A stretch of DNA of 64,000 nucleotides from Mojavia pulchra JT2-VF2 (GCA_019359325.1 JAHHHN010000012.1:5995-69994), one strand, 5' to 3'; shown: positions 14,129 through 61,805, counted from the stretch's first letter. The notes: a model not told the origin generated them from the letters alone. Made by a program: numbers and translations.

Positions 14129-14134
14129 TTAACT

Positions 14135-42628: not shown

Positions 42629-42660
42629 TCCCTTAATAACTACTATCCCGCATTAAATTT

Positions 42661-42756
42661 TGTGACTTTACCCATAACTTTGCCGCAATGGCAAGCTTAT
42701 GGTTCCAGTAGAAGGCGGCAAAGTTATGGTTCCAATTTCTGGGTAATTTTTAAGCT
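42661..42756. repeat. tnsD-proximal transposon end with ~3 closely spaced TnsB-type binding repeats
   Basis: tgtgactttacccataactttgccgc, aagcttatggttcca, ggcggcaaagttatggttcca. Confidence 0.75.
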
Positions 42757-45265: not shown

Positions 45266-45267
45266 AA

Positions 45268-47964
45268 TTAAAACTCCTCATACACTACAAGTGTTTCTGG
45301 GACGATTGCTTCATCTTCAGCCACTTGAGTATCAGTATTTTCAAAAGGAACTTGAATAACCTTTGGTTTTTCGTTACGGCTTGTTGTCGCTTTTCCGCCC
45401 TCAATTACCCTAAAGACTTCCCTAGCTTCTGCATCATAGGAACGCTGTTCTAGTAGAGCTTCTTGTGCCTCTACCGATGCTAAAAATTCTGCTAAATTCT
45501 TAGCTGAAACTTGAGATTGTCGTCCATGATTAGAGGAGCGTTTGCGTAACTCAGCACTAGCTAACTTCAATTCTTTTTCTGAGCGACCTTGGAGTTCTGC
45601 ATAATATTGAGAAATACACTGTACCCACTGTCCTCGAACAAAGGCATAAGCGATACCAATATTAAACGGGTCATATCTTATCTGAACAGAGGTATTTTCA
45701 ATTTGCGGATCGCGAAAACTATTAGACCAGTAGTAGATTGAGTTAATTTTTACGCCGCGTCCTGCTTGAACTTTTGCTTTTCCCTCTGAGGTGGTAGGTA
45801 GGGTAAGAATCTGAAAGTTTTCATCGTAAGGAATCATGCGGTGAATCCGACTACCACCAATCGCCATACCCGCAGCAAACGCATCCCTCGGACTCTGGAA
45901 AAGTGCCGGATGTTCGTCTGTATCGTAAACTTCGTAAGCCCAAGCACAAAGATATTCATAAAGTAAACCAAGTGTCCATACAGCTTGATTTTTAGGGTTA
46001 ACTAACTTGGTGACTTGGCGGACGTTACGAGTTATTTGTGTATTACCAAGTAAGTTATGGACAAATTGAGTATTGGAAGTTCCAAATAGGCGCTCGCAAA
46101 CCGAACCAAAACGAGCTTTGGCTGGGGGTCTTTGCTTTTTTGTACATTCAAAAGTAGCTAGTAGTGTCTCGAAGTAAACGCTGTGAAACTCTGTACCGTT
46201 ATCTACGACTACAATTTGTGGGAGTCTACCATGACGCTTGACACAAATTCTTAGCACCATTAAGCAAGAACGATATGAGGGTGAATCAAACGTTAGGTAA
46301 ACTGCCAGCAATCGCCGTGAGTAAGCATCTACTAAAAATGTTGCCCAAGGTCTGCCAAGATTGCGACCTATACGGGAGCAAACTAGCTCTACATCTAACT
46401 GAGTATGGTCGATATGCCCAATTTCAAAGGGGCGATCGCCGTGTCTTGGGGTAGTTTGGGAAAGTTCCCAATAGAAGGATTCATGCTGGTAAGCGGCACG
46501 CCGACCTTGGCGTTTTTTCGTCTGTTCGTAACCAGTACGGCGTTTTACTTCTTTAGTAAATGCTTTGTAACTCGGAGCAATTACACCAGATTGTTCGCAA
46601 GCTCGAACTAAAGCCCCGTAAACCTCCCACATTCTTTTTTGTTTAAGCGTTTCATAGTCTTCTAAAATAAATTTCTCCATAATTGCTAAGGTGTCTTCCG
46701 GCAGCTTGCGCTGACGATTACCTTTGACACTGCGATGGGACAAAAGCCCAATGTAGCCGCAACCGTATTTTTGATGTGCAGTTAGATATTTAGCTTTCCA
46801 GTCACGAATGGTACGGGCTGGTATTGTTTCGTTTTCTGGGGGATGTCCGTTTAAGTAAGGTTCGATAGTTCTGTAGCGTTCAAGAGCTTCTGCTTGGTCT
46901 TCAGGACTAGCTTGATAAAATCGCTGCCAAGATTCTGTGCTAATAGCTGTTTTTTCTGGTGTTTGGAGACTTGTGATTTTTCCTTGGCGAACCAGATTCT
47001 CAAATATAGCTTTCTTGAGTTCAATTAACTGATTATTTTCTGCGCTAAGTATAACCTCTGTTTCGCCAACATGGATGATATTTAAACCTTTGCCGTCCCA
47101 ACTAACAGGTGTTCCAGTGGCAAGATTGATTACAGGAGAGATAGCCGGAAGATGTACACTTGGCTGCTCAACCATTAATCTATAAGCACTAGCAGTTTGT
47201 TCGTCACGGAAGATGAGACATCTTTCTGGTTCAGCAAGTGGTGCAGCATTTAAATCAAAATAGATTTGCTCTTGAGCAATTAAGGTGTAAATATCGTCAG
47301 ATTTAGCTCCTGTTGGCTGATTGAGTAGTTCTGCTAAAGTGATTCCTGGTTGAGATGACACAATTGCAAGTAATGATTGAGCAATTGTTTCTTCCACTGC
47401 TAGGGATTCTGAGCGATAGTAATCTTCTAAAAATTGCAAATTACGTTGCAGAACCCAGTTTATTTCTCTATCTGAACGAATGCGGTAATAAAGCCCAAAC
47501 TGGTTAGCATATACTTCTCCTGGCGGACAATGCCATTGATTATCTTCTTGAGAGCAAAAGTAACGATTGGGGTTTTTCTCTGCTAATTTTTTCAAATCCT
47601 GCTCAGTTTTACACTCTTCCCAACCAGCCGAATTAGTTCGGATGACAAAGAAATCTGGGGTTTGTAAAACGCCTAATCTACGTCCGTTACTTGCTTGATA
47701 GTCAAGTTTAATTTGCGGTGGTTGATCGTAGAATTCTAGAACATCTTCATCATGTTCTAACTGATAGATAATTGGCAGTTCAACTCGATGAGACTCAAAT
47801 TGAATCGTGACTCCCATCTTGCGACTAGGGTAGCGTCCCGAAACATTTTTACTACCGCCACCAACCCGGCGGGATGGTTCAGATGTGCGGACTTTCTCAA
47901 TAATTTTTTGCCCTGCCTCGGATATTTGAAGGCAAGCAACCCATTGTTCAAATTGCTCTTTCAT
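45268..47964 (-). CDS. tnsAB: TnsA-TnsB fusion transposase (N-terminal PD-ExK TnsA-like endonuclease domain + DDE TnsB transposase)
   Basis: N-terminal ...TPDFFVIRTNSAGWEECK (PD...ExK) within first ~200 aa; central DDE region HIDHTQLDV...VVVDNGTEFHS; 898 aa. Confidence 0.8.
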   Translation of the reverse strand: MKEQFEQWVACLQISEAGQKIIEKVRTSEPSRRVGGGSKNVSGRYPSRKMGVTIQFESHRVELPIIYQLEHDEDVLEFYDQPPQIKLDYQASNGRRLGVLQTPDFFVIRTNSAGWEECKTEQDLKKLAEKNPNRYFCSQEDNQWHCPPGEVYANQFGLYYRIRSDREINWVLQRNLQFLEDYYRSESLAVEETIAQSLLAIVSSQPGITLAELLNQPTGAKSDDIYTLIAQEQIYFDLNAAPLAEPERCLIFRDEQTASAYRLMVEQPSVHLPAISPVINLATGTPVSWDGKGLNIIHVGETEVILSAENNQLIELKKAIFENLVRQGKITSLQTPEKTAISTESWQRFYQASPEDQAEALERYRTIEPYLNGHPPENETIPARTIRDWKAKYLTAHQKYGCGYIGLLSHRSVKGNRQRKLPEDTLAIMEKFILEDYETLKQKRMWEVYGALVRACEQSGVIAPSYKAFTKEVKRRTGYEQTKKRQGRRAAYQHESFYWELSQTTPRHGDRPFEIGHIDHTQLDVELVCSRIGRNLGRPWATFLVDAYSRRLLAVYLTFDSPSYRSCLMVLRICVKRHGRLPQIVVVDNGTEFHSVYFETLLATFECTKKQRPPAKARFGSVCERLFGTSNTQFVHNLLGNTQITRNVRQVTKLVNPKNQAVWTLGLLYEYLCAWAYEVYDTDEHPALFQSPRDAFAAGMAIGGSRIHRMIPYDENFQILTLPTTSEGKAKVQAGRGVKINSIYYWSNSFRDPQIENTSVQIRYDPFNIGIAYAFVRGQWVQCISQYYAELQGRSEKELKLASAELRKRSSNHGRQSQVSAKNLAEFLASVEAQEALLEQRSYDAEAREVFRVIEGGKATTSRNEKPKVIQVPFENTDTQVAEDEAIVPETLVVYEEF

Positions 47965-48137
47965 ATAGTCCTTACTAAGCGCTTTGCGCTTGATTTTATG
48001 AATCTATCAAAATCAGACCATAAAGTTAGGAACTTGTTTACCTGATGCTATACTGCTTAACTTTATAACACTTATAGTGTGCAAAAAACCACTGATAGTA
48101 GGTAGATTTAACAGCGATACTGCTTCAGTATTGTTTT

Positions 48138-48398
48138 GTGACACAGAAACACTTCAGTATTGAGTACCGCTTTGGCAAAGCGATTAGGCGGCGAAGGCGA
48201 GAGCTAGATTTATCCCAAGAAGAACTGGCTGAAAAGTCAGGGCTTCACCGCAACTACATCTCAGGTATCGAAAACGGAGAGCGTAACCCTTCGTTAAAAA
48301 ATATTGTTAAGTTAGCGGCAGCTTTGGAGATATCTGTCTCCGCTCTCTTTGTTAATTACGGCATTGAGGTTAAAAGTGAATCGGAAACTAATTCCTGA
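48138..48398 (+). CDS. XRE-family helix-turn-helix transcriptional regulator (86 aa), divergent from tnsAB and upstream of tniQ
   Basis: LSQEELAEKSGLHRNYISGIENGERNPSLKNIVKLAAAL HTH_XRE signature. Confidence 0.75.
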   Translation: MTQKHFSIEYRFGKAIRRRRRELDLSQEELAEKSGLHRNYISGIENGERNPSLKNIVKLAAALEISVSALFVNYGIEVKSESETNS

Positions 48399-48448
48399 AA
48401 TTTGGCTGTTAAAACTAAAATACTAGCCTTTAGGTTAATCCCAGAGGG

Positions 48449-49438
48449 ATGACTATTTACTCAGAAAATTGGAACCTAAAACCTCCAGAAATCCCGCAAC
48501 GGAGTCGGTTATTTTCTCTTGAACCTGTGGCTGTGGGAGCTCCCTATGCAGAAAGTCTTAGTAGCTATCTCCATCGTCTAGCGCAGGCGCATTGTTTAAG
48601 CTCTCAAAAGCTCGTTATGGGAGAAATTGCGCCACTTATTCTCAAAGATGAGGATAAATCTGAGCTATTAGAACAAAATCTAAGTCACCTATTAGGAAAT
48701 AGCGACGCTAAACCTGCTATCAACGGAATGCGAGAAATGACAGGAAAGTTAGTCACTGTCTTAGAAGAGTTAACAATGCGTCAGGATTTACGCTTTTTGA
48801 CCCTTTTAAGCTGGAAAGGAATGATTTATGACAAGGGGTTATTTCGGAACTATCGCGCTTGGTGTCCTTGTTGTTGGCAAGAGTGGAAGCAGGAGAACAA
48901 AACTATTTATGAACCATTATTATGGTCATTTAAGGATGTAGAATTTTGTTTGATTCACAAACAGCGATTAATAGAAGAATGTCCTCATTGTGGTTCGCGT
49001 TTACCTGTGATGGCTAGGCTTTCACCTGCGGGATTTTGCTCTCGTTGTTACGGGTGGTTAGGACAGGAAATTAAAGGCGAAGAGGAAATAGAGAAATATC
49101 AAATTAATATTCAAGGAATTAGCGAATTAATTACACTTACTCCCCAATTAGGATATAAACCCATCCCGATTGAGTTAACCCGAAAATTACAATTGATTTT
49201 GTTAGTGTTTGAACAAGCAATTGGAAAGGATGTGAAGTTATTGGGAGATTTAGGGGGAATCATGGAATCGTTGAGGATAGCCTCAACAAGAAATCAAAGT
49301 CAACCTTATCATTTGGTGAAGTTGATTATTCCTGTGTGCGAGAAGGCGAAGATTACTGTATCCCAGCTGTTTGGGTCAGATTTTAAGGAATTGGGCAAGA
49401 TATTGTTCGGTAATTTTAGTCTGGAATTAAAGTTATAG
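48449..49438 (+). CDS. tniQ: Short TniQ-family protein (Cascade-associated targeting factor)
   Basis: N-terminal 200 aa align closely with the tnsD product (RSRLFSLEPVAVGAPYAESLSSYLHRLAQAHC; WCPCCWQEW...CPHCGSRL) but lacks the C-terminal HTH extension. Confidence 0.8.
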   Translation: MTIYSENWNLKPPEIPQRSRLFSLEPVAVGAPYAESLSSYLHRLAQAHCLSSQKLVMGEIAPLILKDEDKSELLEQNLSHLLGNSDAKPAINGMREMTGKLVTVLEELTMRQDLRFLTLLSWKGMIYDKGLFRNYRAWCPCCWQEWKQENKTIYEPLLWSFKDVEFCLIHKQRLIEECPHCGSRLPVMARLSPAGFCSRCYGWLGQEIKGEEEIEKYQINIQGISELITLTPQLGYKPIPIELTRKLQLILLVFEQAIGKDVKLLGDLGGIMESLRIASTRNQSQPYHLVKLIIPVCEKAKITVSQLFGSDFKELGKILFGNFSLELKL

Positions 49439-50045
49439 AAGTTTAGTATAAATAAAGATTTATGCTTAAAGGAGTTTAGAAGAGAAGAGACAATTGCTTT
49501 CCTAGATCGGTTCAGTCTGTGATTTTTGTATGGTTATACGACATTTATCATAAGTTAGCAGTTAAATTGGATAAGTACCTTTTGCTCCTTCACAACTGCG
49601 ATCGCCAATATAAACACCAACGATTTTTCGTGTGTTGACATCCTTATATTTTTACTGGGGCGATCGCACTCTTGCCCCCTCACGCAGCCCAATCTTTACA
49701 CAGCAATTCTGCCTGTTGCAGCACTGTCACCATCGCTTTCTCCTGCTTTTCTGGTGGATGTCGTATTTCCGAAGTAAAAGCTTGACTAATGGGCGGAAAT
49801 GTAGTTAAACGCTTTATGTGTCCAGTCGATAATAACGTTGCAGCGAACTGTTTCTACAAGGTCACGAGCGATTGCTACTACGAGAAACAATTATTATAGA
49901 TTCACTCTGTTTACAAATTCAGAGAAATGGCGGCAATATAGTGATTTGTAACTAAGATTAAGTGTCATCGAAAGCCATCACAAAAACTGCTGGAAAAATA
50001 GTTGACGCAGCAGATACCCCTTAGGGGTAAGATAAATTTTCGCTT

Positions 50046-51503
50046 ATGAGTACCACGACCTACGACCTAATTGCCAAGCTCTGGAATCTCTGTAACGTCC
50101 TCAAAGATGATGGCGTGACGTATCACCAATACGTTATTGAACTGACGTACCTGCTGTTTCTGAAGATGGCGAAAGAGACCCGCACTGAAAACCTGCTTCC
50201 AGAGGGTTATCGGTGGGACGATCTGGAAGGCAAGGCAGCAAATGAGCGTCTGGATTTTTACAAATTGCTGTTGATCCACCTTGGTAGTCGCGGTTCCACA
50301 CTTGTTAAAGAAATTTTTGCCAACGCCAATTCCTCTATCAACAAGCCCAATACACTTTCTACACTAGTTACTGAGATTGACAAGCTTGACTGGTATAGCG
50401 CCCGGCAAGAAGGATTGGGCGACGTGTATGAAGGGCTGCTGGAGAAGAACGCTAATGAAAAGAAATCCGGTGCTGGTCAGTACTTTACACCCCGTCCGCT
50501 GATCGATAGTATGGTGCATGTTATGCGCCCTACGTTGAAGGATGTTATTCAAGACCCCGCAGCAGGAACAGGCGGTTTTTTAATCGCCGCCAATCGCTAC
50601 ATACGCGAAAACAGTGACCCGGATATCTGGACAGAAAAACAGCAACGCAAGTACCGTAGCAATACCTTCTACGGTATGGAGCATGTGCAGGACACGCACC
50701 GTCTGGCTTTAATGAATCTAATGCTGCATGGGCTAGAGTTTGACCCGCAAGGGGCAGGTATCCGCTACGGCGATACGCTTTCGCCAGAGGGAGAAGCATT
50801 GCCGAAAGCAACGCTGATCCTTACCAATCCACCTTTCGGCTCCAAGAAAGGGGGTGGTCTACCTACTCGCAAAGACTTCACTTTTTCTACCAGTAATAAA
50901 CAATTTTGCTTTCTGCAACACATTTATGGTGGTCTCAAGCCTGGTGGTCGTGCTGCGGCAGTTTTTCCAGACAGTGTGTTATTTGACAGCAATGTCGGTA
51001 AGCAGATTCGCACTGAATTGATGGAAAAGTGCAACCTACATACCATCTTGCGCCTACCAAGTGGTATTTTTTATGCTCCAGGTGTTAAGACTAACGTGCT
51101 GTTTTTCACACGTGGTAAAAAAGAAAACGGTAATACCCAAGAAGTTTGGGTATACGATCTGCGTACTAACATATCGCAGTTTGGCAAGCGAACTCAACTT
51201 ACACGTAAGCACTTTGCCGAGTTTGAAGTTGCCTTTGGCGATGACCCTCTTGGTATGCCAGAAAGTCTTGCCAAGCGTGTAGATACTGGCGAGCAAGGGC
51301 GTTTTAGAAGATTTACCCGTGATTTGATCGCCAAACGCGGTGAAAACTTGTATATTGCTTGGCTTAAGGATGAAAACGAAGAGAATAATAGCAAACTCAC
51401 CGAACCAGAGTTGCTTGTACAAGAAGCGATGAGTGAACTGGAAGCTGCTCTGACAGAATTGCAGGAAATTCTAGAGGAGTTGGGTGAGGAGATTGAAGCA
51501 TGA
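50046..51503 (+). CDS. hsdM: Type I restriction-modification N6-adenine DNA methyltransferase subunit
   Basis: HsdM N-terminal domain, AdoMet motif DPAAGTGGFL, catalytic NPPFG. Confidence 0.9.
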   Translation: MSTTTYDLIAKLWNLCNVLKDDGVTYHQYVIELTYLLFLKMAKETRTENLLPEGYRWDDLEGKAANERLDFYKLLLIHLGSRGSTLVKEIFANANSSINKPNTLSTLVTEIDKLDWYSARQEGLGDVYEGLLEKNANEKKSGAGQYFTPRPLIDSMVHVMRPTLKDVIQDPAAGTGGFLIAANRYIRENSDPDIWTEKQQRKYRSNTFYGMEHVQDTHRLALMNLMLHGLEFDPQGAGIRYGDTLSPEGEALPKATLILTNPPFGSKKGGGLPTRKDFTFSTSNKQFCFLQHIYGGLKPGGRAAAVFPDSVLFDSNVGKQIRTELMEKCNLHTILRLPSGIFYAPGVKTNVLFFTRGKKENGNTQEVWVYDLRTNISQFGKRTQLTRKHFAEFEVAFGDDPLGMPESLAKRVDTGEQGRFRRFTRDLIAKRGENLYIAWLKDENEENNSKLTEPELLVQEAMSELEAALTELQEILEELGEEIEA

Positions 51504-53164
51504 GTGAGCTTCCAGATGGGTGGATCATGACTCCGCTTGAGGATCTCGGCAACTGGGGTAGTGGAGGAACCCCCAAGAGAACTAATCCACGTTTCTATGT
51601 GAACGGTACTATCCCGTGGCTTGTCATTGGAGATCTAAATGACGGAATAGTTACGTATGCCCAAACCCACATTACTGAGGAGGGACTACTTAATAGCTCA
51701 GCACAACTTTTACCACCAAAAACATTGCTAGTTGCCATGTACGGTTCTATCGGCAAACTTGGCATTACTGGTATCACATGTGCAACAAATCAGGCAATCG
51801 CATTTTGCTGTACATATCAGGAAGTTATAGAACTGCGCTACCTATTCCACGCACTCAAAAATGCTAGGGATCTATTGGTTGCTAAAGGGCAGGGAGGAGC
51901 CCAACAGAACATAAACCAAACTATTCTAAAGGCTCATCAGATTCCGCTAGCCCCCCTCAACGAACAAAAACGCATCGCCGATAAGCTCGATGTCCTGCTG
52001 ATGCGGGTAGATGCCTGTCAAGAGAGACTAGATCGTGTGCCGCGCATTCTCAAACGTTTCCGCCAAAACATTCTTGATTTAGCAGTATCGGGAAAGCTAA
52101 CGGAAAGCTGGCGAGAAGACAATACTGTCAGAATCAGTAACACAGTTGAATTAATACAGATCGAACCTATAGGTGATTTTCTTAGTGCAATCAATTCGCT
52201 TGATTATGTTATTCCTGATGGTTGGGTATGGCTCAATCCTGACTTAATTAAATTTTCTGAAAAGCACTCACTTTCAATTGGTCCATTCGGAAGCAACCTG
52301 ACTGTTAAAGATTATAGAGATGCAGGTATTCCATTGGTATTTGTGCGAGATATACGCAGGAAAAATTTTGGTAACGAAACAACAAAGTTTATAAGTGAAC
52401 AAAAAGCTCAAGAACTATGGGCACATAGAGTCGAACCCGGTGATCTACTAATTACTAAAATGGGTGATCCACCCGGAGATGTCGCAGTCTTCCCTCTAGA
52501 TAGACCTATTTCAGTGATTACAGCCGATTGTATACGGATAAAAGTTAATCCTGAAATAGTAAGTATAAAACTGTTGTCACTGTTTATCGAGAGTAGTTTG
52601 ATTAGATCGCTAATAAAGGAGATAACTGCTGGCGTTGCCCAACAAAAAATAAGCTTGCAAAGATTCCGTTCTATGCCCCTACCTATTCCGCCACTTGATG
52701 AACAGCAAGAAATTGTTCGTCGTGTCGAATCGCTGTTCGCTTATGCTGATCGCCTCGAAGCCCACTATCAAGCCGCCTGTACTCAGATCGAGCGTTTAAC
52801 ACCAGTACTCTTGGCTAAAGCCTTTCGTGGCGAACTCGTACCCCAAGACCCCAATGATGAATCAGCATCTGTGCTGTTGGAGCGGATTCACGCTGAGCGA
52901 GCAGCACAACCCGCCAAAGCTAAGAGAGACATAACTTCTAGAAAACCAGCCATGACCAAAATGACCAAAGAATCTGTCAAAGAAGCAATTCGGCAATTAC
53001 CTCAGAACAAATTTTCATTCGATGAACTGCGTGAAAACCTCACTGGTGATTATGACTCACTAAAAGATATCCTGTTTACACTCCTCAGTGAAGCCAAGCC
53101 AATTCTTACCCAGGTCTTCGATCAAGAGGAGCAAGCGATGCGTTTTTTTCGGGCAGGCAAATGA
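51500..53164 (+). CDS. hsdS: Type I restriction-modification specificity subunit (two target recognition domains)
   Basis: Conserved HsdS central and C-terminal coiled regions (LPPLDEQQEIVRRVESLFAYADRLEA...LAKAFRGELV) flanking two variable TRDs; start overlaps hsdM stop. Confidence 0.85.
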   Translation: MSELPDGWIMTPLEDLGNWGSGGTPKRTNPRFYVNGTIPWLVIGDLNDGIVTYAQTHITEEGLLNSSAQLLPPKTLLVAMYGSIGKLGITGITCATNQAIAFCCTYQEVIELRYLFHALKNARDLLVAKGQGGAQQNINQTILKAHQIPLAPLNEQKRIADKLDVLLMRVDACQERLDRVPRILKRFRQNILDLAVSGKLTESWREDNTVRISNTVELIQIEPIGDFLSAINSLDYVIPDGWVWLNPDLIKFSEKHSLSIGPFGSNLTVKDYRDAGIPLVFVRDIRRKNFGNETTKFISEQKAQELWAHRVEPGDLLITKMGDPPGDVAVFPLDRPISVITADCIRIKVNPEIVSIKLLSLFIESSLIRSLIKEITAGVAQQKISLQRFRSMPLPIPPLDEQQEIVRRVESLFAYADRLEAHYQAACTQIERLTPVLLAKAFRGELVPQDPNDESASVLLERIHAERAAQPAKAKRDITSRKPAMTKMTKESVKEAIRQLPQNKFSFDELRENLTGDYDSLKDILFTLLSEAKPILTQVFDQEEQAMRFFRAGK

Positions 53165-54786
53165 AGCTTTTAAGGGTTCACATCATTTATGCTAAAACTT
53201 GCGGGGGGCTACTTGATGGACTGAACTTACAGTTACGAAGTCCATTTAGTGGCTATTCTGGGTTTGATCCTTTATGTCTTATTGGTCCGAATGGCGCAGG
53301 AAAATCTCAATTCTTGCAAGTGCTAACAGAAATTTTTCAGTCTGTTTTCCACACATGCCTTCCCAATGAAGAACGTTCCGAAGGGCCAGACTTGCATTTC
53401 GAGCTTGAGTACCTCATTCACCCAGAAGATGAGCAGCTACCTGTCCGTGTCCGCATTTCACGGAAAGCCAGTCGTAAAAATCGTCCAAGCCTTGTAATTG
53501 AGCGGAGAGATGAAGATGAATACGACTGGATAGAATGTGACCTCAAAGCTCCTGAAACCCATAAACTTTTACCTCAAAAGATTGTTGGCTATACGTCAGG
53601 CGATAATGAAACGCTTAGTTTGCCGTTCCTCTTAAGTCGCAGTGGGTACGCGAAGGATGTAACCGAAAGTGCATTACACGAGCCAAAACGCGTTCCCGAT
53701 ACTCGGCTAATGCTGATTGACTATGGAACGCACCTTGAAGTTTTTGTGGCAAATCTCCTGTTGGGTGATGCTTCCCAGTGGGATTTTCTGCTACAGGATG
53801 CAAAACTGCAAAACCTGCACTCATTTCGTTGCATAGTCCAACTTGCACACAGTGCAGCCCCGAAGATTCCAAGTAGGAGAGGCTCACAAAGTACGCGAAA
53901 AGGAATACAACTTACCAAGGAACTGGAAGATTATCTCGATCAGCTCCAACGTTGCGCTACCTGCTACACCTATGACGATAAAACAGAGACGTATACCTTT
54001 GACTATTGGATAAATGACCAGACAAGAGAAGCGTTTCGCTCCTTTTGGAACAACACGCTTGATTTGTACTCGTCATTCCACAAGTTCGCAATGTTAAACG
54101 ACTTGGTACTTCCCAAGAAAACCCGTGAGCGGTTTCGGAAAGACACCAAATCGAGAAGGTTTGCTTCACGTCTTCCAGAGCCTCAGGATGAAGATAAGGT
54201 TTTCCGATTTGAAAGCGTTATGTTTACTGCTCAAAGGACTGGCAAAGAGGTAGACTACGTATCGCTTTCCGATGGCGAGCATCAGCTTGGGCAGATTCTT
54301 GGAACATTTTGTATGTTGTCATTTCCTAATGTACTTTTCCTGCTTGATGAGCCTGAGTCGCATTTCAATCCGCTATGGCGGGTGAAATTCATTTCACGCA
54401 TATTGGATCTGCCTACTACACATGGCGATCGCAGAGAATCAGCTAAAGCTACTGAACAAGAGTGCTTACTAACAACACACTCGCCTTTCGTCCCCTCTGA
54501 TATGCATAGAGACAAAGTTTTTATTTTTAGCAAAGACGAAGAAGGGAAGATTCAAGTCCAAAATCCTAATATTGAGACATTTGGCACTACATTCGACACA
54601 ATCATTGAGGAATGCTTTAACGTTCGCCCGCCTATGTCACAAGTTCCTCATGATGAGATTAAAAGGCTTATGGAGAGTGAAAATCCCGAAGAGATTAGGG
54701 CAGGGATGCAGCATCTAGGTGATTCTGTTGAGAAAGCATTTCTTGTTGATCGACTGTTGCAGCTAACAAATAGGGATGAGGTGTAG
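53161..54786 (+). CDS. ABC/SMC-like ATPase of the AAA_15/AAA_21 type (Septu PtuA-like) translationally coupled to hsdS
   Basis: Walker A LIGPNGAGKSQ, signature-like LSDGEHQ, Walker B LFLLDEPESHFNP, H-loop LLTTHSP; ATGA overlap with hsdS stop. Confidence 0.7.
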   Translation: MKLLRVHIIYAKTCGGLLDGLNLQLRSPFSGYSGFDPLCLIGPNGAGKSQFLQVLTEIFQSVFHTCLPNEERSEGPDLHFELEYLIHPEDEQLPVRVRISRKASRKNRPSLVIERRDEDEYDWIECDLKAPETHKLLPQKIVGYTSGDNETLSLPFLLSRSGYAKDVTESALHEPKRVPDTRLMLIDYGTHLEVFVANLLLGDASQWDFLLQDAKLQNLHSFRCIVQLAHSAAPKIPSRRGSQSTRKGIQLTKELEDYLDQLQRCATCYTYDDKTETYTFDYWINDQTREAFRSFWNNTLDLYSSFHKFAMLNDLVLPKKTRERFRKDTKSRRFASRLPEPQDEDKVFRFESVMFTAQRTGKEVDYVSLSDGEHQLGQILGTFCMLSFPNVLFLLDEPESHFNPLWRVKFISRILDLPTTHGDRRESAKATEQECLLTTHSPFVPSDMHRDKVFIFSKDEEGKIQVQNPNIETFGTTFDTIIEECFNVRPPMSQVPHDEIKRLMESENPEEIRAGMQHLGDSVEKAFLVDRLLQLTNRDEV

Positions 54787-55870
54787 GATGCTGTTTGGGT
54801 ATCCCGTTTCGGCAACAGCGGAAAATTGGCTTCACGAATGCTTACGCGAGATTCTGTGTTCAATTCATACAAGCCTAAAAGCAGCAGCCACTCTGCCAGC
54901 ATGGCCTGAAATTATTCCAGCGCAATACCGAAAAAGGTTGGAAAAACGCCGAGGGCTGGAAGATAGGTTGAATAATTACAAGACAGCTTTAGAAAAGCTT
55001 ACCACCGCAGAACAGAACCGAATTCTTCAAGCATTCCATGACCAAAATCAGATTGATCTTCTCTTGTCTTGCCAATTGAACTGTGAAGCTATCGGTGATT
55101 TGCCAGAAGTCATTCATGAGCCAGTAAAAAAACTTTTTGAATTTGGGTTTGAACTTCTCACAAAACTGGAAATCCGCGATAAGCACTACAAGGTAATTTA
55201 TGATGCGGCTCCCTCTCATACATGTCCTTTCTGTGGGTGTGAGTACTTTGATGCACCAGAAGCACCCCGTGAAGCATTGGATCATTACCTGGCAGAAAGC
55301 AAATACCCATTTGCTGCTTCAAATTTGCGTAACCTTGTTCCAATGGGAAATAAATGTAACTCTCGCTACAAACTTGCGAAGGATATTCTCTTGAGGAATG
55401 ACGGCACTCGTCGCAAATCGTTTGACCCTTACAACTGTACAGGAATCAGACTCTCTCTCGAAAACAGTCAGCCTTTTGCTGGTACACTTGCACCAACTGG
55501 TCAACTACCGCGATGGCAAATCGAGTTTGGCCCAAACACTGAAGAGGTGATTACTTGGGATGAAGTGTTCCATATCAGAGAACGATATGAAAGAGACGTG
55601 CTAAACGCTGAATTTATAAGTTGGCTAAGGTATTTCCAGTCTTGGTGCAAATCTGCGAAAATTGCGCCTAGTTCTGACCAAGAATTGATGGATGCGCTCA
55701 ATCGTTGTGCAACCCACTGCGAAGAGATGGGGATTAGCGATCGCGCGTTCTTAAAAGCCGCTGTATTCCGAATGTTGCACACACATTGCCAGCAAGGTGA
55801 TCAACGACTTATTTCATTGATCATGAGTATTGTGAACCCAGGACAAACCAATTTGCGGCAAGCCCCGTAA
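54776..55870 (+). CDS. HNH-family nuclease (Septu PtuB-like) overlapping the ATPase gene end
   Basis: HTCPFCGC...ALDHYLAESKYP...NLVPMGNKCNSRYK = Cys pair, His, Asn-Asn of HNH motif. Confidence 0.65.
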   Translation: MRCRMLFGYPVSATAENWLHECLREILCSIHTSLKAAATLPAWPEIIPAQYRKRLEKRRGLEDRLNNYKTALEKLTTAEQNRILQAFHDQNQIDLLLSCQLNCEAIGDLPEVIHEPVKKLFEFGFELLTKLEIRDKHYKVIYDAAPSHTCPFCGCEYFDAPEAPREALDHYLAESKYPFAASNLRNLVPMGNKCNSRYKLAKDILLRNDGTRRKSFDPYNCTGIRLSLENSQPFAGTLAPTGQLPRWQIEFGPNTEEVITWDEVFHIRERYERDVLNAEFISWLRYFQSWCKSAKIAPSSDQELMDALNRCATHCEEMGISDRAFLKAAVFRMLHTHCQQGDQRLISLIMSIVNPGQTNLRQAP

Positions 55871-55972
55871 ACTAAATCAATTTTGACGCGATCGCTTTTA
55901 TCCTACATCCTCATAGTTTGTAAACTGTAGTAGCCCAAAATTCTACTATTTGTTTACTGGTGTAGCTATTAT

Positions 55973-56266
55973 ATGAGCGATAAGGGTAAAAAAGAAACAA
56001 AAATGTATATTTATATTACAGATGTTGTATTCGTTGCTTGGAATAAAGACAGAGGAGAGCTTTTAAAGCGATTGCGTGGGAAAAAATCGCGGCAGAAACT
56101 AGCTGATGAAATTGCAGCCAAGGGAGGTGAATGCTCCCATCAAAACATTAAAAAACTAGAGTATGGTGAGTCTGAAAGTGTTTCTATAAAAGTATTAGAG
56201 GCTATTTGTGCTGCATTGAATATTTCTCTGAGCGACTTCCTTAGCGTTGTAGAAGTGACTCATTAA
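55973..56266 (+). CDS. XRE-family HTH regulator (97 aa)
   Basis: SRQKLADEIAAKGGECSHQNIKKLEYGE...LEAICAALNISLSDFL HTH signature. Confidence 0.65.
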   Translation: MSDKGKKETKMYIYITDVVFVAWNKDRGELLKRLRGKKSRQKLADEIAAKGGECSHQNIKKLEYGESESVSIKVLEAICAALNISLSDFLSVVEVTH

Positions 56267-56317
56267 AGTTTTGGATATCTTCTTGCTTTTTAGCTACTAA
56301 AGTTACTAATATATCTT

Positions 56318-56701
56318 ATGAAATCAAAAAGGCGATCGCCCTCCGGCAAGAGAAATGCGATCGCCTTTTGTTCAACCCCGTTAATGAGGTCACTCATGAT
56401 GATTGTACAAGATGACTTTAGCAACTCAGCCTTGGCTGAATCAGAGTTTGAGGAATATATTGACCACCTGGCCGACCCAGTAGCACCAGAAATTGAAATT
56501 GACTCAGTAGCAGATGACTTGGGTGAACTGTATCGAGTCTGGAATGGTTCTCAACTACTTGGCACTTTCTACCAAAATCTGGAAAGTAAATGGATAGCAC
56601 AACCCTGTAATAGCGATGACAGGCAATGCTGTGACACTCCTTTGGCAGCGCAAATAATCATCATCGCTGTTAATGGCTTACTTGTAGCCGACGTAGCATA
56701 A
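56318..56701 (+). CDS. Hypothetical acidic protein (true start probably internal, ~100 aa)
   Basis: ORF only; N-terminal 20 codons contain two HIP1 sites and look non-coding. Confidence 0.3.
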   Translation: MKSKRRSPSGKRNAIAFCSTPLMRSLMMIVQDDFSNSALAESEFEEYIDHLADPVAPEIEIDSVADDLGELYRVWNGSQLLGTFYQNLESKWIAQPCNSDDRQCCDTPLAAQIIIIAVNGLLVADVA

Positions 56702-56893
56702 CACACAAAGCATTTATCCCATCGACTTGGAGAGGTGATTCAATCACCTCTCTTTTTTGTATGCTTTGTCAAGTTCACTTTCTAGAAATGCACTGGCTCT
56801 TTGAGAACAGTTTTCTCGCAAAGCAGCAACTCTGACAACCTTCCAGCGCATAATTTCTTCTCTACATTCATCAAGCTGCTTGATTCGCCCTAG

Positions 56894-57076
56894 TTTGAGC
56901 AACGCCTAACGGCATCAAGCCACGAATCACAAATTTGTCTACCCCGTTCGTACCATTCTTCTCTATTTTGAGCAACGCCTAACGGCATCAAGCCACGAAT
57001 CACCTGCAAAAAAGGAATTTGTGCTTGTTGAGACCCGTACTTGAGCAACGCCTAACGGCATCAAGCCACGAATCAC
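56894..57076. CRISPR. CRISPR mini-array: 3 x 37-bp repeats ([T/C]TTGAGCAACGCCTAACGGCATCAAGCCACGAATCAC) at 56894-56930, 56967-57003, 57040-57076 with two 36-bp spacers
   Basis: Direct reading; third repeat differs at its first base. The array lies ~250 bp downstream of cas5 on the minus strand, so it is probably transcribed on the minus strand (repeat then reads GTGATTCGTGG...GTTGCTCAAR). Confidence 0.85.
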
Positions 57077-57324
57077 AGCAAAGCTGAAAATCCTTAACTG
57101 AGGAAGGCTCATTTACAATCTTACAAGTACCTTCCAGATCAAGAAACCAAAAACTCAAAACCTACCAAAGTTTCCCTTATTTTCAGCCCCTCAAACCCAG
57201 TGCTGATCAACTTTTCCAAAAATAGCAAGCACCTTTTTCCTTGCCTCAATTCCCATATCCCTTACCGTGTAAACCTTGCCGCCATTCTTTTACCCTGAAT
57301 TCCCTTTCCAATAAGAGATACTTG

Positions 57325-57963
57325 TCAAATTGGAGATTGAATCATCGTCCACGCCAAATCAGGAGGAGGTGAGCTTGACATTTCCTCAATCCGATACCTC
57401 AAAAATCGGGTATTTCTTGACCCCACATGGTCAACCCAATAGGGTAAGGTTAACCTACCTCGATTATCCCTAATTACCCACTGTCTCACCCCCCCAAGAT
57501 AATCTTGGGAGACAAGTTTGATTGATTTAATCAACTGATCACTTTCTCCTAAAAATAAACAACCAAATCGTCTTACTAGCTCAGGATGGTCAAACGCTAA
57601 CTGTATCCTCTCCCTTAAACTTGGTTGTATTTTCTCCCCCTCAGAACGAACCCAAATCAAACACTTGAGATTAGACAAAATTTCTTGATAACCGGGAATA
57701 ACATTCTCTGGATGGCTAAAATCAGCATTTTTAAACCGTCTCATTTGACGCAAAATTCGCGACTTTTTGGGGCTAGATAACATTGCGATCGCCAATTCTA
57801 CCCCACAGTGGCGATAAACATCCGTTTCCCCTACCAAAGACAACAACATCCCATACACTGTTGCTGGAGATGGGACAGGATAGGTTTTTCCCATTTCTCT
57901 TGCATGGGACTCCCGAAAAGTCGCAAAGGGAACATCCAAATAGAGAATTAATGGTGCAATCAT
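57325..57963 (-). CDS. cas5: Cas5 (type I Cascade subunit)
   Basis: N-terminus MIAPLILYLDVPFATFRESHAREMGKTYPVPSPATVYGMLLSLVGE is the Cas5 RAMP signature. Confidence 0.75.
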   Translation of the reverse strand: MIAPLILYLDVPFATFRESHAREMGKTYPVPSPATVYGMLLSLVGETDVYRHCGVELAIAMLSSPKKSRILRQMRRFKNADFSHPENVIPGYQEILSNLKCLIWVRSEGEKIQPSLRERIQLAFDHPELVRRFGCLFLGESDQLIKSIKLVSQDYLGGVRQWVIRDNRGRLTLPYWVDHVGSRNTRFLRYRIEEMSSSPPPDLAWTMIQSPI

Positions 57964-58928
57964 TTTGATTCTTCTAAGCCCAAATCTCTTTTAATGACTG
58001 TTTTCAAGTCTTCAATCAGTTCATTTCGATTACGATAAATATGCGCCTTATTAAAAGTGGAATTCTCAAAATTATCCAATTCCTGTAACTCTTTGACCAT
58101 TGTTCCCCCAATCCACAATTGGCTAGGGTCAATCTGTCCGCATTCCACTTCATCGATAAATTCTTTTGTAAATTTTGCTTCCTTACTCTTAGGCTCACAA
58201 TATTCAAAGCAATAGGAAATGTATGAAGCAAAATTATTTGTCCATTGCAATACCAAACTATCGGGACAGAAAGGATAGTTAAAAATATTGCTACTCCCTC
58301 CTACCTTGGGTAATTCCATAATCCCATCTATCAGAGGTAAAATCCGCGAATAGTTTTTGAGATGAGTGGCATTAATTCCAAAATAATATTGATATCGAGT
58401 TGCGTGATATTCTGTAATATGGAGCGATGTACTATCCTTTTCCCTGCCACTTTTCGCCCCTAACTTGACTGCACCATCATAAGGCGTTAGCGAAACAGCC
58501 ATATTCATCGCTAAAGCACCAATTCGCTGATTAGGAGTGCTGGTTTTTTTTTGTTTCTTTTTTCTCTTTGTTGTTGAAGTCTCCTCCTCTGTCTCCGCAG
58601 ACTCTAATAAAGCAAACCCAAAAATATCATCATCATAAAATTGTTCTGGATCAAAATCTTCACTTGTTAACCGATTAATATGTTCATCTTCATCCCAAAC
58701 TCGATTAACTAAATAACCTTGCTTTTGAAGATAAAAGCGTAACGCCCAACGAATCGCGCTAGAACCTACAAAAGAATGAATTTTACCATTCCAATAGCCT
58801 TTTTGTAGAATAGTTTTATTTCCTCGTCTGATGTCATGATTTAAGGAGGCTAACCCATAACGAGTGAGGACTGTTCCGTAAAGATAATAATTGGGGATAT
58901 TATTGTCATTCTTCTTCTGACTCATCAT
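57960..58928 (-). CDS. cas7: Cas7 (type I-B Cascade backbone subunit)
   Basis: YLYGTVLTRYGLASLNHD...GSSAIRWALR N-terminus and glycine-rich thumb; 322 aa; start overlaps cas8 end. Confidence 0.75.
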   Translation of the reverse strand: MMSQKKNDNNIPNYYLYGTVLTRYGLASLNHDIRRGNKTILQKGYWNGKIHSFVGSSAIRWALRFYLQKQGYLVNRVWDEDEHINRLTSEDFDPEQFYDDDIFGFALLESAETEEETSTTKRKKKQKKTSTPNQRIGALAMNMAVSLTPYDGAVKLGAKSGREKDSTSLHITEYHATRYQYYFGINATHLKNYSRILPLIDGIMELPKVGGSSNIFNYPFCPDSLVLQWTNNFASYISYCFEYCEPKSKEAKFTKEFIDEVECGQIDPSQLWIGGTMVKELQELDNFENSTFNKAHIYRNRNELIEDLKTVIKRDLGLEESK

Positions 58929-60537
58929 TCACTTCTTCTGGTTTTTGATTGTTTGTAGATAAACTATCATCCCCACTGGTGGATTTATCTTTGGGTTTAT
59001 AACTGGCGATCGCTAACAATGACCAAATTCTTAGTTCTTGCCAAGGTGATTTTTTGATTAGTAGTGAAATTTCTTCTTGATGCTGATTAAAATACTTATT
59101 TAATCCCCCTCTTACTAAAAAGTCAGATAAATATTCCTTAAACGACAATTCATCATAACAATAGTTTAGCTCCGCCCTTAATCGTTCAACCTTCTTCTTA
59201 ATGGGAGGGTCTTTCCCTTCCTCAGCTTTAGCATACATTTTAGCAAAATTGCCTTTCATCGCTTGCTGAAATACCTTGATAAAAATAAGATACTGCTTGT
59301 CTTCTTCGCTATTCTCTGCCATTCTTATGAATCCTTCCCGATTGGGAAATATTTGGTTAAATAAGTATTCTTTTGAATCCTCTATCACCAATTTTTCCCA
59401 AAAATTAGACCACCAATGAATTCCCGTCACTAAATTATCAGCAATCAGCGAGCGAATTGGATTTACGTTAATAAAAATTTGCTTAGGTTTAATCTTCTGA
59501 TAATTTGCTTGAAAATATTTTTGAACCTGTTGATAAGTGATTAAAGTATTTTTATCAATTTCAATTTCTTGTATACTCATCAATGTTCTTTGACGAGAAG
59601 CTTGATTCATTTTTTCATATAACCAAACTTGACAAGCTTGATAGTAGTCGCCTTCAAGCTGAATATCGTCTAAGCTGTAATAAAGTAATCCTGCTTCACC
59701 AAGGCTACTAACATGAAGCTGTTTTGTTTCTAATTGCTGTAATCGCCATCTTCTTTGAGAAGCGTCTTCAAAATCCTTGATTTCTGGAATCACCACCAGG
59801 TAGCGATGGGGTTTCTTTCCCTTCAAGTCTTCTGATGGGATATGAAGTAAGCAATAATGACAAACTACTGGTACAAATAATAATGCTAAGGCGTATTCAG
59901 GTTTCTCTTCTAGTTTTGTAGTATTCTGCGTCCTAGCATGGCGAACAATTCCCCCTAAATACAACCAACTGGTTATTTGAACATAATCATGTCTGAGTTG
60001 TTGGGTATCTACTTCGTATAACTTCTCTGCAAAGGTTTGATGTGCGTACCAAGTTAGGGATTTGTATTGATACTCGACTTTTTTTTCTTCAAACTTTAGT
60101 TCAGTGTTAACTATCTCTCCCGCTTGATAAAACTGGTTATGACGCAGAAAAACAGCACACATTCCCTCATGAATATGAATTTTCTGACTTAAATCTATTG
60201 CATCATTGTCTAATCCTGTTAAATGAATTAAACCTGTATCATCTAATTGAAAAGACCCTTTAATTAACCAAGATAGGGCGACAAAAACACTTCCTTGCCA
60301 GAATAATTCAATAGTATCAGCAGTCAAAGACCATGATATATGTCCTCCGCGTTGACGAGATGAGGGATATTGCTTTTCTAATCGCTTTAAAGTCATGTAT
60401 AGTCCCGTCATTCCCACGCGGTGCATTATTGTCGTATCCGCAGCATTGAGAGATAGGGAGATTTTGGGTTGGGTAGCAACCATGATCAGGTTTCCTCTTC
60501 TTCCTTGCTGCGAGTCGCTGGGACAAATATTCCACAC
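58906..60537 (-). CDS. cas8: Cas8b-like large subunit
   Basis: 543 aa protein encoded between cas6 and cas7 in an overlapping operon; no strong motif, assignment by position and size. Confidence 0.6.
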   Translation of the reverse strand: MWNICPSDSQQGRRGNLIMVATQPKISLSLNAADTTIMHRVGMTGLYMTLKRLEKQYPSSRQRGGHISWSLTADTIELFWQGSVFVALSWLIKGSFQLDDTGLIHLTGLDNDAIDLSQKIHIHEGMCAVFLRHNQFYQAGEIVNTELKFEEKKVEYQYKSLTWYAHQTFAEKLYEVDTQQLRHDYVQITSWLYLGGIVRHARTQNTTKLEEKPEYALALLFVPVVCHYCLLHIPSEDLKGKKPHRYLVVIPEIKDFEDASQRRWRLQQLETKQLHVSSLGEAGLLYYSLDDIQLEGDYYQACQVWLYEKMNQASRQRTLMSIQEIEIDKNTLITYQQVQKYFQANYQKIKPKQIFINVNPIRSLIADNLVTGIHWWSNFWEKLVIEDSKEYLFNQIFPNREGFIRMAENSEEDKQYLIFIKVFQQAMKGNFAKMYAKAEEGKDPPIKKKVERLRAELNYCYDELSFKEYLSDFLVRGGLNKYFNQHQEEISLLIKKSPWQELRIWSLLAIASYKPKDKSTSGDDSLSTNNQKPEEVNDESEEE

Positions 60538-61148
60538 ATCATTTTTCGTTTCCCGCCAATTCCCTGTTCTTGCAACGTTAAGGAATCTTCTGGGTTGAGT
60601 GAGCTAATTTTTATGCCAAATCCTCTAACTTTAAACTGTTTCCCTTTTTGATTGATGGTTAATTGTCTTTTTTGAGGTGTTCCATCTTGTCGGGTAAGAA
60701 GTTCAATTTTTCCTTGTATTCCTTTATTATCCAGTTGCCGTTGCACAGCTTCAATAAAGTTAGTCGAGTCTTGAAAACCTGTAATTATGACTAATCTGGA
60801 ATAGACACTTTCTGAAGAAATTAACGGTTTGTAGTCGGGAATATCTAGTTGATAAGAATTTTGACCTATGTGAAAAGCTTGACCTGCTAAATAAAGATAA
60901 ATTAAAGGAATTTGTTGATGATGAATCCGAATTTTGAGGCGAGATTGAGCAGTAAGTTCAAGCAAATTATTTCTTGTCGGTATTCCAGCAATCGGATGAA
61001 TACCAATAGACTCTAGTTCGTGAAGGATAGGACAAATCCTGCACAATGCGCTATAGATAACATAACCATTATCAAGAGGAATCGGTGCGCCTCTGAGCTT
61101 AAACGTTAAGTCTACATATTCCTCACTTTGAATTAATATGGCTGCCAT
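60486..61148 (-). CDS. cas6: Cas6 crRNA endoribonuclease
   Basis: C-terminal glycine-rich loop GIGGKRKMMCGIFVP and ferredoxin-like N-terminus; 220 aa. Confidence 0.75.
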   Translation of the reverse strand: MAAILIQSEEYVDLTFKLRGAPIPLDNGYVIYSALCRICPILHELESIGIHPIAGIPTRNNLLELTAQSRLKIRIHHQQIPLIYLYLAGQAFHIGQNSYQLDIPDYKPLISSESVYSRLVIITGFQDSTNFIEAVQRQLDNKGIQGKIELLTRQDGTPQKRQLTINQKGKQFKVRGFGIKISSLNPEDSLTLQEQGIGGKRKMMCGIFVPATRSKEEEET

Positions 61149-61419
61149 AGATGGAAATTTCGAGAAAAATTTAAAGATGGCAGAGTTTGTTTAATACATC
61201 AACATTCTCTTGTGCAAAATTGCTCTCATTGTCATCGCCAACTAATTTGGTTAGACTAGCAATCCAGTTTAGGCTATTGTTCGCAATGTTCTCAATGGTT
61301 AGGAGGATATTATACTACTCCAGTAGTTACTCACAACAGTTCGATAGCCGAAAGTCTCTATCCCATACCAGCATGAACCGCTTCTGCTCCCTTCTAAAAA
61401 AATCCGGCGCTTTCCTGCT

Positions 61420-61595
61420 TTCTATGCTTAATTGGACTCACGGCAAGCTTATCCTTCCAACTGGGACTTGCGGCAAATTTATGGTTCCAAACTGGCAATT
61501 GCATCCAAAATTAGCTGACGCAAGAATGAGGGTTATAGTGACATTGACGGCAAAGTTATGGTTCCAGTAGCGGCAAAGTTATGGGTAAAGTCACA
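61420..61595. repeat. cas6-proximal transposon end with 4-5 dispersed TnsB-type repeats (cggcaagcttatccttcca, gcggcaaatttatggttcca, gacggcaaagttatggttcca, gcggcaaagttatgggtaaagtcaca)
   Basis: Direct reading; terminal 26 bp exact inverted repeat of 42661-42686. Confidence 0.75.
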
Positions 61596-61805
61596 AAATT
61601 TTGTGGCAACTTATGCTTGTTGTCACAAAATCGCAGTTTATGCTTGTAAGTCTCGGTAGTGTGCATGATGCTAAATCGCATGGCTGTACTCTAAATGTGC
61701 TGTTTTCAATCATTTGGAGCAAGCGAATAACCATAATGACAGGCATTATGGAAAAAGGTTGAATTTAATGGCTTATTGGCTGTTATTCAGTTCTATAAAT
61801 AACTC

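Follow-up and report, generated by a model that had tools for sequence, protein, structure and literature searches.

What does a type I restriction operon do when it lacks hsdR, the gene for its restriction subunit, and carries genes for an ATPase and an HNH protein directly behind its specificity gene? This question is raised by a four-gene operon (hsdM, hsdS, an ABC-type ATPase gene and an HNH gene) in DNA of Mojavia pulchra JT2-VF2, a cyanobacterial metagenome-assembled genome. The stretch that was analysed, here called the window, is 64,000 nucleotides long, and coordinates are window positions (Table 1). Our analyses show that the operon belongs to a widespread module, of which it represents the HsdR-less form; the genes of this module run in the order (hsdR)-hsdM-hsdS-ATPase-HNH, hsdR being optional. 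The analyses further show that the link between the ATPase-HNH pair and the methyltransferase genes is a coupling and not a chance juxtaposition.

Coupling of the ATPase and HNH genes to hsdS

All four open reading frames (ORFs) that a preliminary description of this DNA had listed are present on the plus strand, and the first two encode, as it said, a type I methyltransferase and specificity subunit. HsdM gives an N6_Mtase match, with motif I (DPAAGTGGF) and motif IV (NPPF) both intact. HsdS has two Methylase_S stretches, which form two target-recognition domains, followed by an atypical C-terminal tail. Three stop/start overlaps had been described, of which two stood: the hsdM/hsdS and hsdS/ATPase junctions are ATGA overlaps at 51500-51503 and 53161-53164. 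The third (54776/54786) is probably a start-codon artefact, because the homologues of gene 4 all start with ML(F)xY, matching an ATG at 54788, which is probably the true start of the HNH gene. This ATG lies 1 nucleotide past the TAG of the ATPase gene (54784-54786), and the GAGGTG upstream of it at 54778-54783 is likely to be its ribosome-binding site. The ATPase and HNH genes are thus tightly coupled even without an overlap. Promoter and terminator scans were uninformative, returning fewer matches than shuffled sequence.

The ATPase carries all of the ABC motifs noted earlier, namely a Walker A (GPNGAGKS), the LSDGEHQ motif, a Walker B (LFLLDEPESH) and an H-loop (TTHSP), and it matches Pfam AAA_21 (3e-15). 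Over its full length it belongs to NCBIfam TIGR04435 ("restriction system-associated AAA family ATPase"): the score was 480.7 bits against a cutoff of 300, with residues 1-535 aligned to profile positions 1-566 of 568, and the NCBI record of the identical protein (Mojavia pulchra JT2-VF2) bears the family's name. The association of the family with type I genes holds here, as hsdS is immediately upstream. Pfam and motif inspection found no C-terminal nuclease domain in the ATPase. The product of gene 4 matched nothing in Pfam or NCBIfam. Across 21 homologues, down to 17% identity, it keeps an invariant C-x2-C-G ... D-H ... N-L-x-P ... C-N ... K core, which reads as an HNH (beta-beta-alpha-metal) signature.

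Operons of this kind were found in other bacteria when about 32 related loci were compared, drawn from cyanobacteria, about 25 diverse genomes of a GTDB scan and three plasmids. In every related locus with enough flank, the ATPase gene lies directly after hsdS and the HNH gene directly after the ATPase gene, and among the approximately 30 such loci no TIGR04435-type pair was found without hsdS/hsdM. HsdS and the ATPase can also be a single chain. An exhaustive search of protein cluster representatives returned 227 ATPase clusters (50% identity) at E <= 1e-30. Among the best 150 of these 227, at least 17 have proteins of 800-1150 amino acids, and all nine of the long relatives tested are Methylase_S + AAA_21 fusions. 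In 17 fusion representatives, a Pro/Ser/Lys-rich linker of 40-70 residues separates the C-terminal helix of HsdS from the N-terminus of the ATPase; several retain the ATPase's own Met-Lys-Leu start in frame, and one fusion is identical in two assemblies. We considered frameshift artefacts at the ATGA overlap, with the longest sequence perhaps being chosen as the representative. This was ruled out: since unique linkers replace the tail, the ATPase start is kept in frame and one fusion occurs in duplicate assemblies, these are real gene fusions.

The tail of HsdS provides another line of evidence. The tail motif of the Mojavia protein (Table 1) is common to HsdS proteins that precede TIGR04435-type ATPases. 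HsdS proteins that precede a canonical PtuA have a different tail (..EIDxFYxQLKxEV..GWI..), those without an adjoining ATPase end right after the AFRGELV helix, and the HsdS-ATPase fusions have the flexible linker instead. Because the type of tail tracks the type of ATPase, and because the tail is missing where there is no ATPase and replaced by a linker in the fusions, we infer that it would act as a docking domain for the ATPase. Further, in other type I operons the position directly behind hsdS is taken by canonical Septu pairs (PADLOC PtuA 560-680 bits, PtuB 270-310 bits; GTDB loci L033, L037, L039, L040, L045, L047, L050 and L052-L054). The gene order in these loci is often hsdR-hsdS-ptuA-ptuB-hsdM. 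Taken together, the fixed position, the fusions, the match of tail to ATPase type and the use of the same slot by Septu establish that the pair is coupled to hsdMS, and the connection beyond juxtaposition that had been suspected from the M. pulchra operon is borne out.

The same loci bear on a different explanation, in which an autonomous Septu-like pair is simply embedded in a type I operon for co-regulation or co-transfer and works independently of HsdM-HsdS, the M. pulchra genes being an orphan methylase left after loss of hsdR. Independent defence genes are often embedded in type I, BREX and DISARM loci (10.1101/2024.01.29.577857), and PIN toxin-antitoxin and GIY-YIG genes are inserted in relatives of this operon. 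A nearly identical HsdM (L054, 3e-260) is moreover paired with a different, canonical PtuA, so that the modules are exchangeable. However, a pair that was merely a passenger would not be expected always to follow hsdS immediately with a start/stop overlap, never to occur without hsdS/hsdM in about 30 loci, to be fused in frame to HsdS in at least 17 clusters, or to be matched by the tail of HsdS, and we therefore consider simple nesting quite unlikely. The insertions just mentioned lie between hsdM and hsdS: a small ORF plus a PIN toxin-antitoxin pair at 7768-8421 of L072/L073, and a hypothetical protein plus a GIY-YIG nuclease at 4710-6427 of L079 (Sphingobium pKN1). Embedding in TIGR04435-type operons is layered.

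Relation to Septu and the distribution of hsdR

The preliminary description had likened the ATPase and HNH proteins to PtuA and PtuB of Septu. Several comparisons agree with this: the ATPase matches the PADLOC PtuA model PDLC00293 (2.7e-46, residues 38-489), its nearest solved relatives are PtuA chains of Septu and of retrons Ec78/Ec83 (1e-12 to 1e-15; next is AriA of PARIS, 7e-7), and PtuB proteins come out best when the fold of the HNH protein is compared. Against PDB sequences, a profile of gene 4 gave nothing meaningful. In PADLOC, the HNH protein is nearest to PDC-M62B (2.9e-12) and PDC-M01B (8e-11), and it matches the PtuB model at 4e-4. The ATPase scores only 38.5 bits against the NCBIfam PtuA equivalog, which has a cutoff of 500. 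The pair is thus a diverged relative of Septu that, by the curated thresholds, does not count as a member. A model of the ATPase made with AlphaFold2 (AF2) from a shallow alignment (>= 70% identity) had a pLDDT score (predicted local distance difference test) of 65, too poor for fold comparison, and was not used.

Two further features set the pair apart from Septu. The HNH protein here is of about 355 amino acids with large helical N- and C-terminal domains, whereas PtuB has about 200-280 amino acids. Septu is normally an autonomous two-gene system, and embedding in Hma was seen for only 0.7% of its systems (10.1101/2024.01.29.577857), whereas the TIGR04435-type pair invariably occurs with hsdM-hsdS. 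PDC-M62 and PDC-M01 of PADLOC are likewise pairs of an ATPase (A) and an HNH-type protein (B), and are multi-gene candidates from 'guilt by embedding'. The ATPase matches PDC-M62A at 1.2e-13 and PDC-M01A at 5.9e-14. However, the matches to these systems are limited to the conserved C-terminal half of the ATPase and the HNH core, which makes them a related family and not the same one. At residue 191 (ORF numbering) of the HNH protein, the third Cys of a zinc-finger pair (C-x2-C ... C-x2-C-N) is replaced by Gly (PMGNKCNS) in the clade of the window; this Cys is kept in more distant members of the family (PMCSECNS, PICDYCNK).

With regard to hsdR, a tblastn search of the whole 64-kb window with five HsdR seeds gave no match, and the element that carries the operon, a CRISPR-associated transposon (CAST), holds no ResIII/HSDR_N protein, in agreement with the earlier statement that the element has no hsdR. 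The only large helicase in the window, an SNF2 protein with DUF3670 (1435-4707, minus strand, 1090 amino acids), was considered as a surrogate R subunit and rejected, since it lies outside the CAST and 45 kb away. The relatives present a mixed picture. Syntrophaceae, Myxococcales and Hydrogenophaga provide the three relatives that are closest outside the cyanobacteria, with 62-66% identity in the ATPase, and in these an HsdR gene (HSDR_N + ResIII + EcoEI_R_C) lies directly upstream of hsdM and overlaps it. In all, hsdR is present in about 12 of the 32 loci (L008, L009, L010, L017, L018, L019, L026, L028, L029, L066, L076, which is an HsdS-ATPase fusion locus, and the Sphingobium plasmid pKN1). 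It is absent within up to 10 kb in about 20 of the 32, which comprise all of the cyanobacterial loci; those of Stutzerimonas, Acidobacteriaceae, Paludibacter, two Chryseobacterium, Flavobacterium, Algoriphagus and Alistipes; a second HsdS-ATPase fusion locus; a Priestia plasmid; and the Hymenobacter plasmid pHsw2. The latter (41.5 kb) has no hsdR anywhere on the plasmid. Large ORFs in the hsdR-less loci were inspected as cryptic HsdR proteins and turned out to be Mfd, a protease, a VgrG-like protein, an IS66 transposase and similar. The pHsw2 plasmid of Hymenobacter swuensis (L081/L082) is mobilisable, with phage-like genes (terminase, tape measure, primase) and two RelE/ParE toxin-antitoxin pairs.

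Loss of hsdR is not a cyanobacterial peculiarity, as the hsdR-less loci of Stutzerimonas, Acidobacteriaceae, several Bacteroidota, Priestia and the Hymenobacter plasmid refute this. In a neighbour-joining tree of the ATPase, the hsdR-less state falls in at least five separate clades, and the cyanobacterial clade is nested beside hsdR-containing relatives. Because the hsdR-less state is scattered in this way, the conserved core is M-S-ATPase-HNH, and hsdR was probably lost repeatedly. The preliminary description had put the pair in place of hsdR, and this was contradicted by the EcoEI-type hsdR directly upstream of hsdM in about 12 of the 32 loci, the three closest non-cyanobacterial relatives among them. 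Since these loci keep hsdR in the same operon, the ATPase-HNH pair is an add-on to the type I core and not a general substitute for HsdR.

The TIGR04435-related family is spread over Cyanobacteria, Proteobacteria, Bacteroidota, Acidobacteria and Bacillota; no ATPase homologue was found in a phage collection. NPPF is intact in 28 of 28 hsdM genes examined, and the ATPase and HNH motifs are conserved alike in hsdR-containing and hsdR-less loci. In cyanobacteria, the four-gene form is the norm and occurs in unrelated contexts (chromosomal sites, near tnsB/tnsC/tniQ and, here, in a type I-B CAST). Between Mojavia and Nostoc cf. commune SO-36, HsdM is 93% identical, the ATPase 91% and the HNH protein 91%, and HsdS is 49% identical, with 7-37% in its target-recognition domains and 62-95% in its conserved regions. 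Another relative has only the first target-recognition domain in common with Mojavia. This divergence of HsdS has the form of classic type I domain shuffling.

A proposed sensor-effector reading and competing explanations

The closest solved relatives, PtuAB of Septu and of retron I-A, work as effectors that a sensor partner restrains. By analogy with PrrC and Ronin, we tentatively favour the possibility that HsdM-HsdS is a sensor and the ATPase-HNH pair its latent effector. HsdM2-HsdS would assemble as a sequence-specific and catalytically competent N6-methyladenine (m6A) methyltransferase. The ATPase would dock on the family-specific tail of HsdS, except in the lineages where the flexible linker fuses it to HsdS, and would carry the HNH nuclease as PtuA carries PtuB; through the tail, HsdM2-HsdS would keep the pair latent. 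Phage or plasmid anti-restriction proteins, for instance the DNA mimics Ocr and ArdA or peptides like Stp, might then occupy or distort the DNA-binding groove of the M-S complex and change the state of the ATPase, which would free the HNH nuclease to cut DNA or tRNA and abort the infection. In loci with hsdR, the pair would, like PrrC, guard a type I enzyme that works; in loci without it, such as this one, the M-S complex would be mainly bait, as in Ronin, and may also methylate DNA.

Published systems provide parts of this scheme. Ronin joins HsdMS without HsdR to a toxin, has Ocr, ArdA and Aop1 as triggers and works independently of methyltransferase catalysis (10.1101/2023.04.06.535777). 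PrrC and PARIS are described as guardians of restriction-modification systems built on ABC ATPases (PMC12707154; 10.1101/2024.01.29.577857), and ABC ATPase effectors embedded in type I loci are reported to be a common pattern (10.1101/2024.01.29.577857). A guard that degenerates into a decoy would also yield the mixed pattern of hsdR described above (present in about 12 loci, none in about 20, at least five clades), and the same pattern is seen in Ronin.

Nevertheless, several points weigh against the sensor-effector reading. Its trigger and the substrate of its nuclease are supposed by analogy only. The swapping of target-recognition domains between modules that are otherwise 91-93% identical, together with the intact NPPF, suggests that specificity and methylation matter, which would be needless for a pure decoy. 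In Trichormus variabilis (L002/L003, 6027-8516, two assemblies), hsdM is reduced to a remnant of 47 amino acids and hsdS, the ATPase gene and the HNH gene are intact, which is awkward for an M-S complex that simply sequesters a toxin. The covalent HsdS-ATPase fusions rule out activation by release, and activation would therefore be allosteric. Lastly, the search for hsdR covered the 64-kb window, and the Mojavia genome may hold one elsewhere.

The same swaps and fusions lend themselves to a second, doubtful but possible, explanation, that of methylation-gated restriction without HsdR, in line with the hybrid system that the preliminary description had suggested. An M2S complex on an unmethylated foreign bipartite site would recruit or activate the ATPase, the HNH protein would cut, and host DNA would be protected by m6A. 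The pair would then be an alternative module for restriction, able to exist alongside HsdR in some lineages. There is a precedent in MADS, which has type I-like M and S proteins and an ABC-type ATPase but no HsdR, and in which methylation-based discrimination at a bipartite motif was shown experimentally (10.1101/2023.03.30.534895). The conserved core is M-S-ATPase-HNH, and about 20 of 32 loci, among them whole plasmids and cargo of CAST or Tn7-like elements, have no hsdR. The AdoMet (S-adenosylmethionine) motif and NPPF are kept in all of the hsdR-less loci, shuffling has affected the target-recognition domains as it does in active type I systems, and a tether, which can be covalent, links the effector to the subunit that recognises DNA. 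However, shuffling is also expected as a neutral process where nothing restricts, and the complete EcoEI-type hsdR of about 12 loci would leave two nucleases for one M-S core. To our knowledge, relatives of PtuA/PtuB are not known as site-directed, methylation-sensitive restriction enzymes, which also counts against this explanation. In its boldest form, the proposal is that M-S-ATPase-HNH is a self-sufficient restriction enzyme of a new class, in which the pair docked on the HsdS tail replaces HsdR and HsdR is an optional second effector. We regard this as rather unlikely; at 5.8 kb, such a module would be compact enough for CRISPR-guided transposons and small plasmids to carry it as their sole cargo.

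A third explanation would assign the missing activity to the past or to another locus: an EcoEI-family HsdR elsewhere in the Mojavia genome would act in trans, with the operon then being an ordinary type I system that has an accessory pair, or the operon would be a non-functional remnant whose hsdR disappeared when the transposon captured it. The closest hsdR-containing relatives (62-66% ATPase identity) indicate that the ancestor of the clade probably had hsdR, and degenerate copies do occur, as fragments only (L068), with split genes (L015, Citrobacter) and with hsdM deleted (L002). On the other side, the four ORFs are intact with their catalytic motifs in many cyanobacterial genomes, at 70-95% identity and in varied contexts, and pHsw2 holds an hsdR-less module on a plasmid that has no hsdR. 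We consider supply in trans or decay very unlikely.

Comparison with characterised systems helps to define what is distinctive here. As in classical type I systems of the EcoAI/EcoEI-like family IB, HsdM and a two-domain HsdS are translationally coupled, and the HsdR of the relatives has the HSDR_N + ResIII + EcoEI_R_C architecture; unlike them, the operon lacks HsdR, its HsdS has an extra tail and two added genes are fixed behind it. PrrC in EcoprrI is an ABC-type ATPase effector beside hsdS in a type I (IC) operon, and is thought to be controlled by the restriction-modification complex; it is the paradigm of a guardian of such systems. PrrC is, however, a single polypeptide with its own anticodon-nuclease domain, lies between hsdS and hsdR and almost always occurs with hsdR, whereas here the nuclease is encoded separately, as an HNH protein, and hsdR is missing in many loci or, in the relatives that have it, lies upstream of hsdM; the likeness shown between the two ATPases is that of the ABC fold. 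Ronin shares the type I M+S without HsdR, linked to a non-HsdR effector, and is found both near full restriction-modification systems and in hsdR-less genomes, but its effector is the 61-amino-acid membrane toxin RonA and not an ATPase-nuclease pair, and it is largely from E. coli (Silas et al.). MADS of Pseudomonas aeruginosa has eight genes with mandatory MAD6-8, whereas the operon here has no further genes; NCBIfam MADS models gave 92.8/720 (MAD2), 19.9/420 (MAD3) and 56.3/400 (MAD5) bits (score/cutoff) against its proteins.

The preliminary description had taken this exact arrangement to be uncharacterised. That is right to the extent that we found no paper on hsdM-hsdS-ATPase-HNH operons, on the HsdS fusions or tail, or on the hsdR-less form as CAST or plasmid cargo. 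There was likewise no paper under TIGR04435 or 'restriction system-associated AAA', and PDC-M62 and PDC-M01 were found in census papers only. It needs qualification in that the ATPase family is curated and was named for its restriction association, PDC-M62/PDC-M01 are listed as candidates, Ronin and MADS are published, and the concepts of guardian, decoy and HsdR-less methylation-associated defence are already known. That the pair is coupled to HsdS and that HsdR has been lost recurrently is notable for specialists but not shocking. If the coupling is functional, the type I M-S core would be a reusable sensor that drives effectors beyond HsdR, here a Septu-type ATPase-nuclease, and would join separate lines of work on type I restriction, Septu, guardians and decoys (PrrC, Ronin) and methylation-associated systems (MADS). 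Since the family is large (227 clusters) and annotated under an uninformative name, one assignment of function would cover many genes.

The transposon and its surroundings

The region 42655-61601 is a complete type I-B CAST of about 18.9 kb, as shown by its inverted repeats, tns and tniQ genes, Cas5-8 genes without cas3 or cas1-2, and short array (Table 1). Repeated 22-mers are present at both ends, and the termini TGTGAC...GTCACA are flanked by AAATTT on both sides. The CRISPR module, in which neither cas3 nor cas1-2 was found, is a minimal type I-B (I-MYXAN-like) one. The four-gene operon lies inside the 45-nucleotide inverted repeats together with these genes; it is CAST cargo, as the preliminary description had it, and essentially the only cargo. 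For CAST biology, this is an 18.9-kb type I-B element with only this module on board, which would make the CAST useful to its host. The tnsB/tnsC/tniQ genes beside some cyanobacterial relatives have sizes typical of V-K CASTs.

Table 1. Positions of the operon, the transposon and their features in the window
Feature	Position	Strand	Details
hsdM	50046..51503	+	485 aa; Pfam N6_Mtase 1.6e-72 + HsdM_N; PADLOC MTase_I 1.5e-203
hsdS	51500..53164	+	554 aa; two Methylase_S stretches, Pfam 2.1e-31; PADLOC Specificity_I 1.3e-101
HsdS C-terminal tail	52907..53161	+	about 80-85 aa past the AFRGELV helix; FSFDEL..DYxSLKDxLFxLL..QxFD
ABC-type ATPase	53161..54786	+	541 aa; TIGR04435 member, distant PtuA relative
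HNH (beta-beta-alpha-metal) nuclease-like protein, PtuB-like fold	54788..55870	+	360 aa from ATG at 54788; mechanical ORF start at 54776
tRNA-Ala(GGC)	42556-42628		about 32 nt upstream of the left CAST end
tRNA-proximal CAST end	42655..42699	.	45-nt terminal inverted repeat, 87% complementary; 22-mer repeats; TGTGAC terminus at 42661
TnsD-like TniQ	42757-44232	-	Pfam TniQ
TnsC	44114-45265	-	Pfam AAA_22/TniB
TnsA-TnsB fusion	45268-47964	-	Pfam TnsA_N/TnsA_C/rve/Mu-transpos_C
Helix-turn-helix (HTH) regulator	48138-48398	+	Pfam HTH_3 3.9e-20; just upstream of the cargo operon
Second TniQ	48449-49438	+	Pfam TniQ 2.7e-21; just upstream of the cargo operon
Mini CRISPR array	56890-57076	-	three 37-nt repeats (GTGATTCGTGGCTTGATGCCGTTAGGCGTTGCTCAA+1), two spacers of about 36 nt
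cas5	57325-57963	-	NCBIfam Cas5 4.4e-39
cas7	57960-58928	-	NCBIfam Cas7 4e-16
cas8a1	58906-60537	-	NCBIfam Cas8a1/Cmx1 5.8e-75
cas6	60486-61148	-	NCBIfam Cas6/Cmx6 2.4e-56
Distal CAST end	61557..61601	.	inverted-repeat partner; GTCACA terminus at 61595
aa, amino acids; nt, nucleotides.

The cargo stands between the second tniQ and cas6-cas8-cas7-cas5, and the tnsAB-tnsC-tnsD operon points outward, to the tRNA-proximal end, which is unusual. Just outside the distal inverted repeat, at 61608-61631, there is an extra partial transposon-end motif (compare 61576-61599 and 42657-42680), which could be left over from an earlier insertion or be an additional TnsB-binding site. In Nostoc cf. commune SO-36 (L001), a GmrSD_N (type IV restriction) gene at 14111-15964 separates the four-gene module from a TnsA-TnsB-like transposase with tnsC, and may be a second defence cargo in a related element. 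The Trichormus variabilis locus with the hsdM remnant also adjoins tnsB/tnsC/tniQ genes of V-K CAST-typical sizes. Outside the CAST, the window encodes, besides the SNF2 helicase, a Ser/Thr kinase fused to seven WD40 repeats (34237-36102, plus strand). HIP1 palindromes (GCGATCGC) are frequent across the window, as is typical of cyanobacteria.

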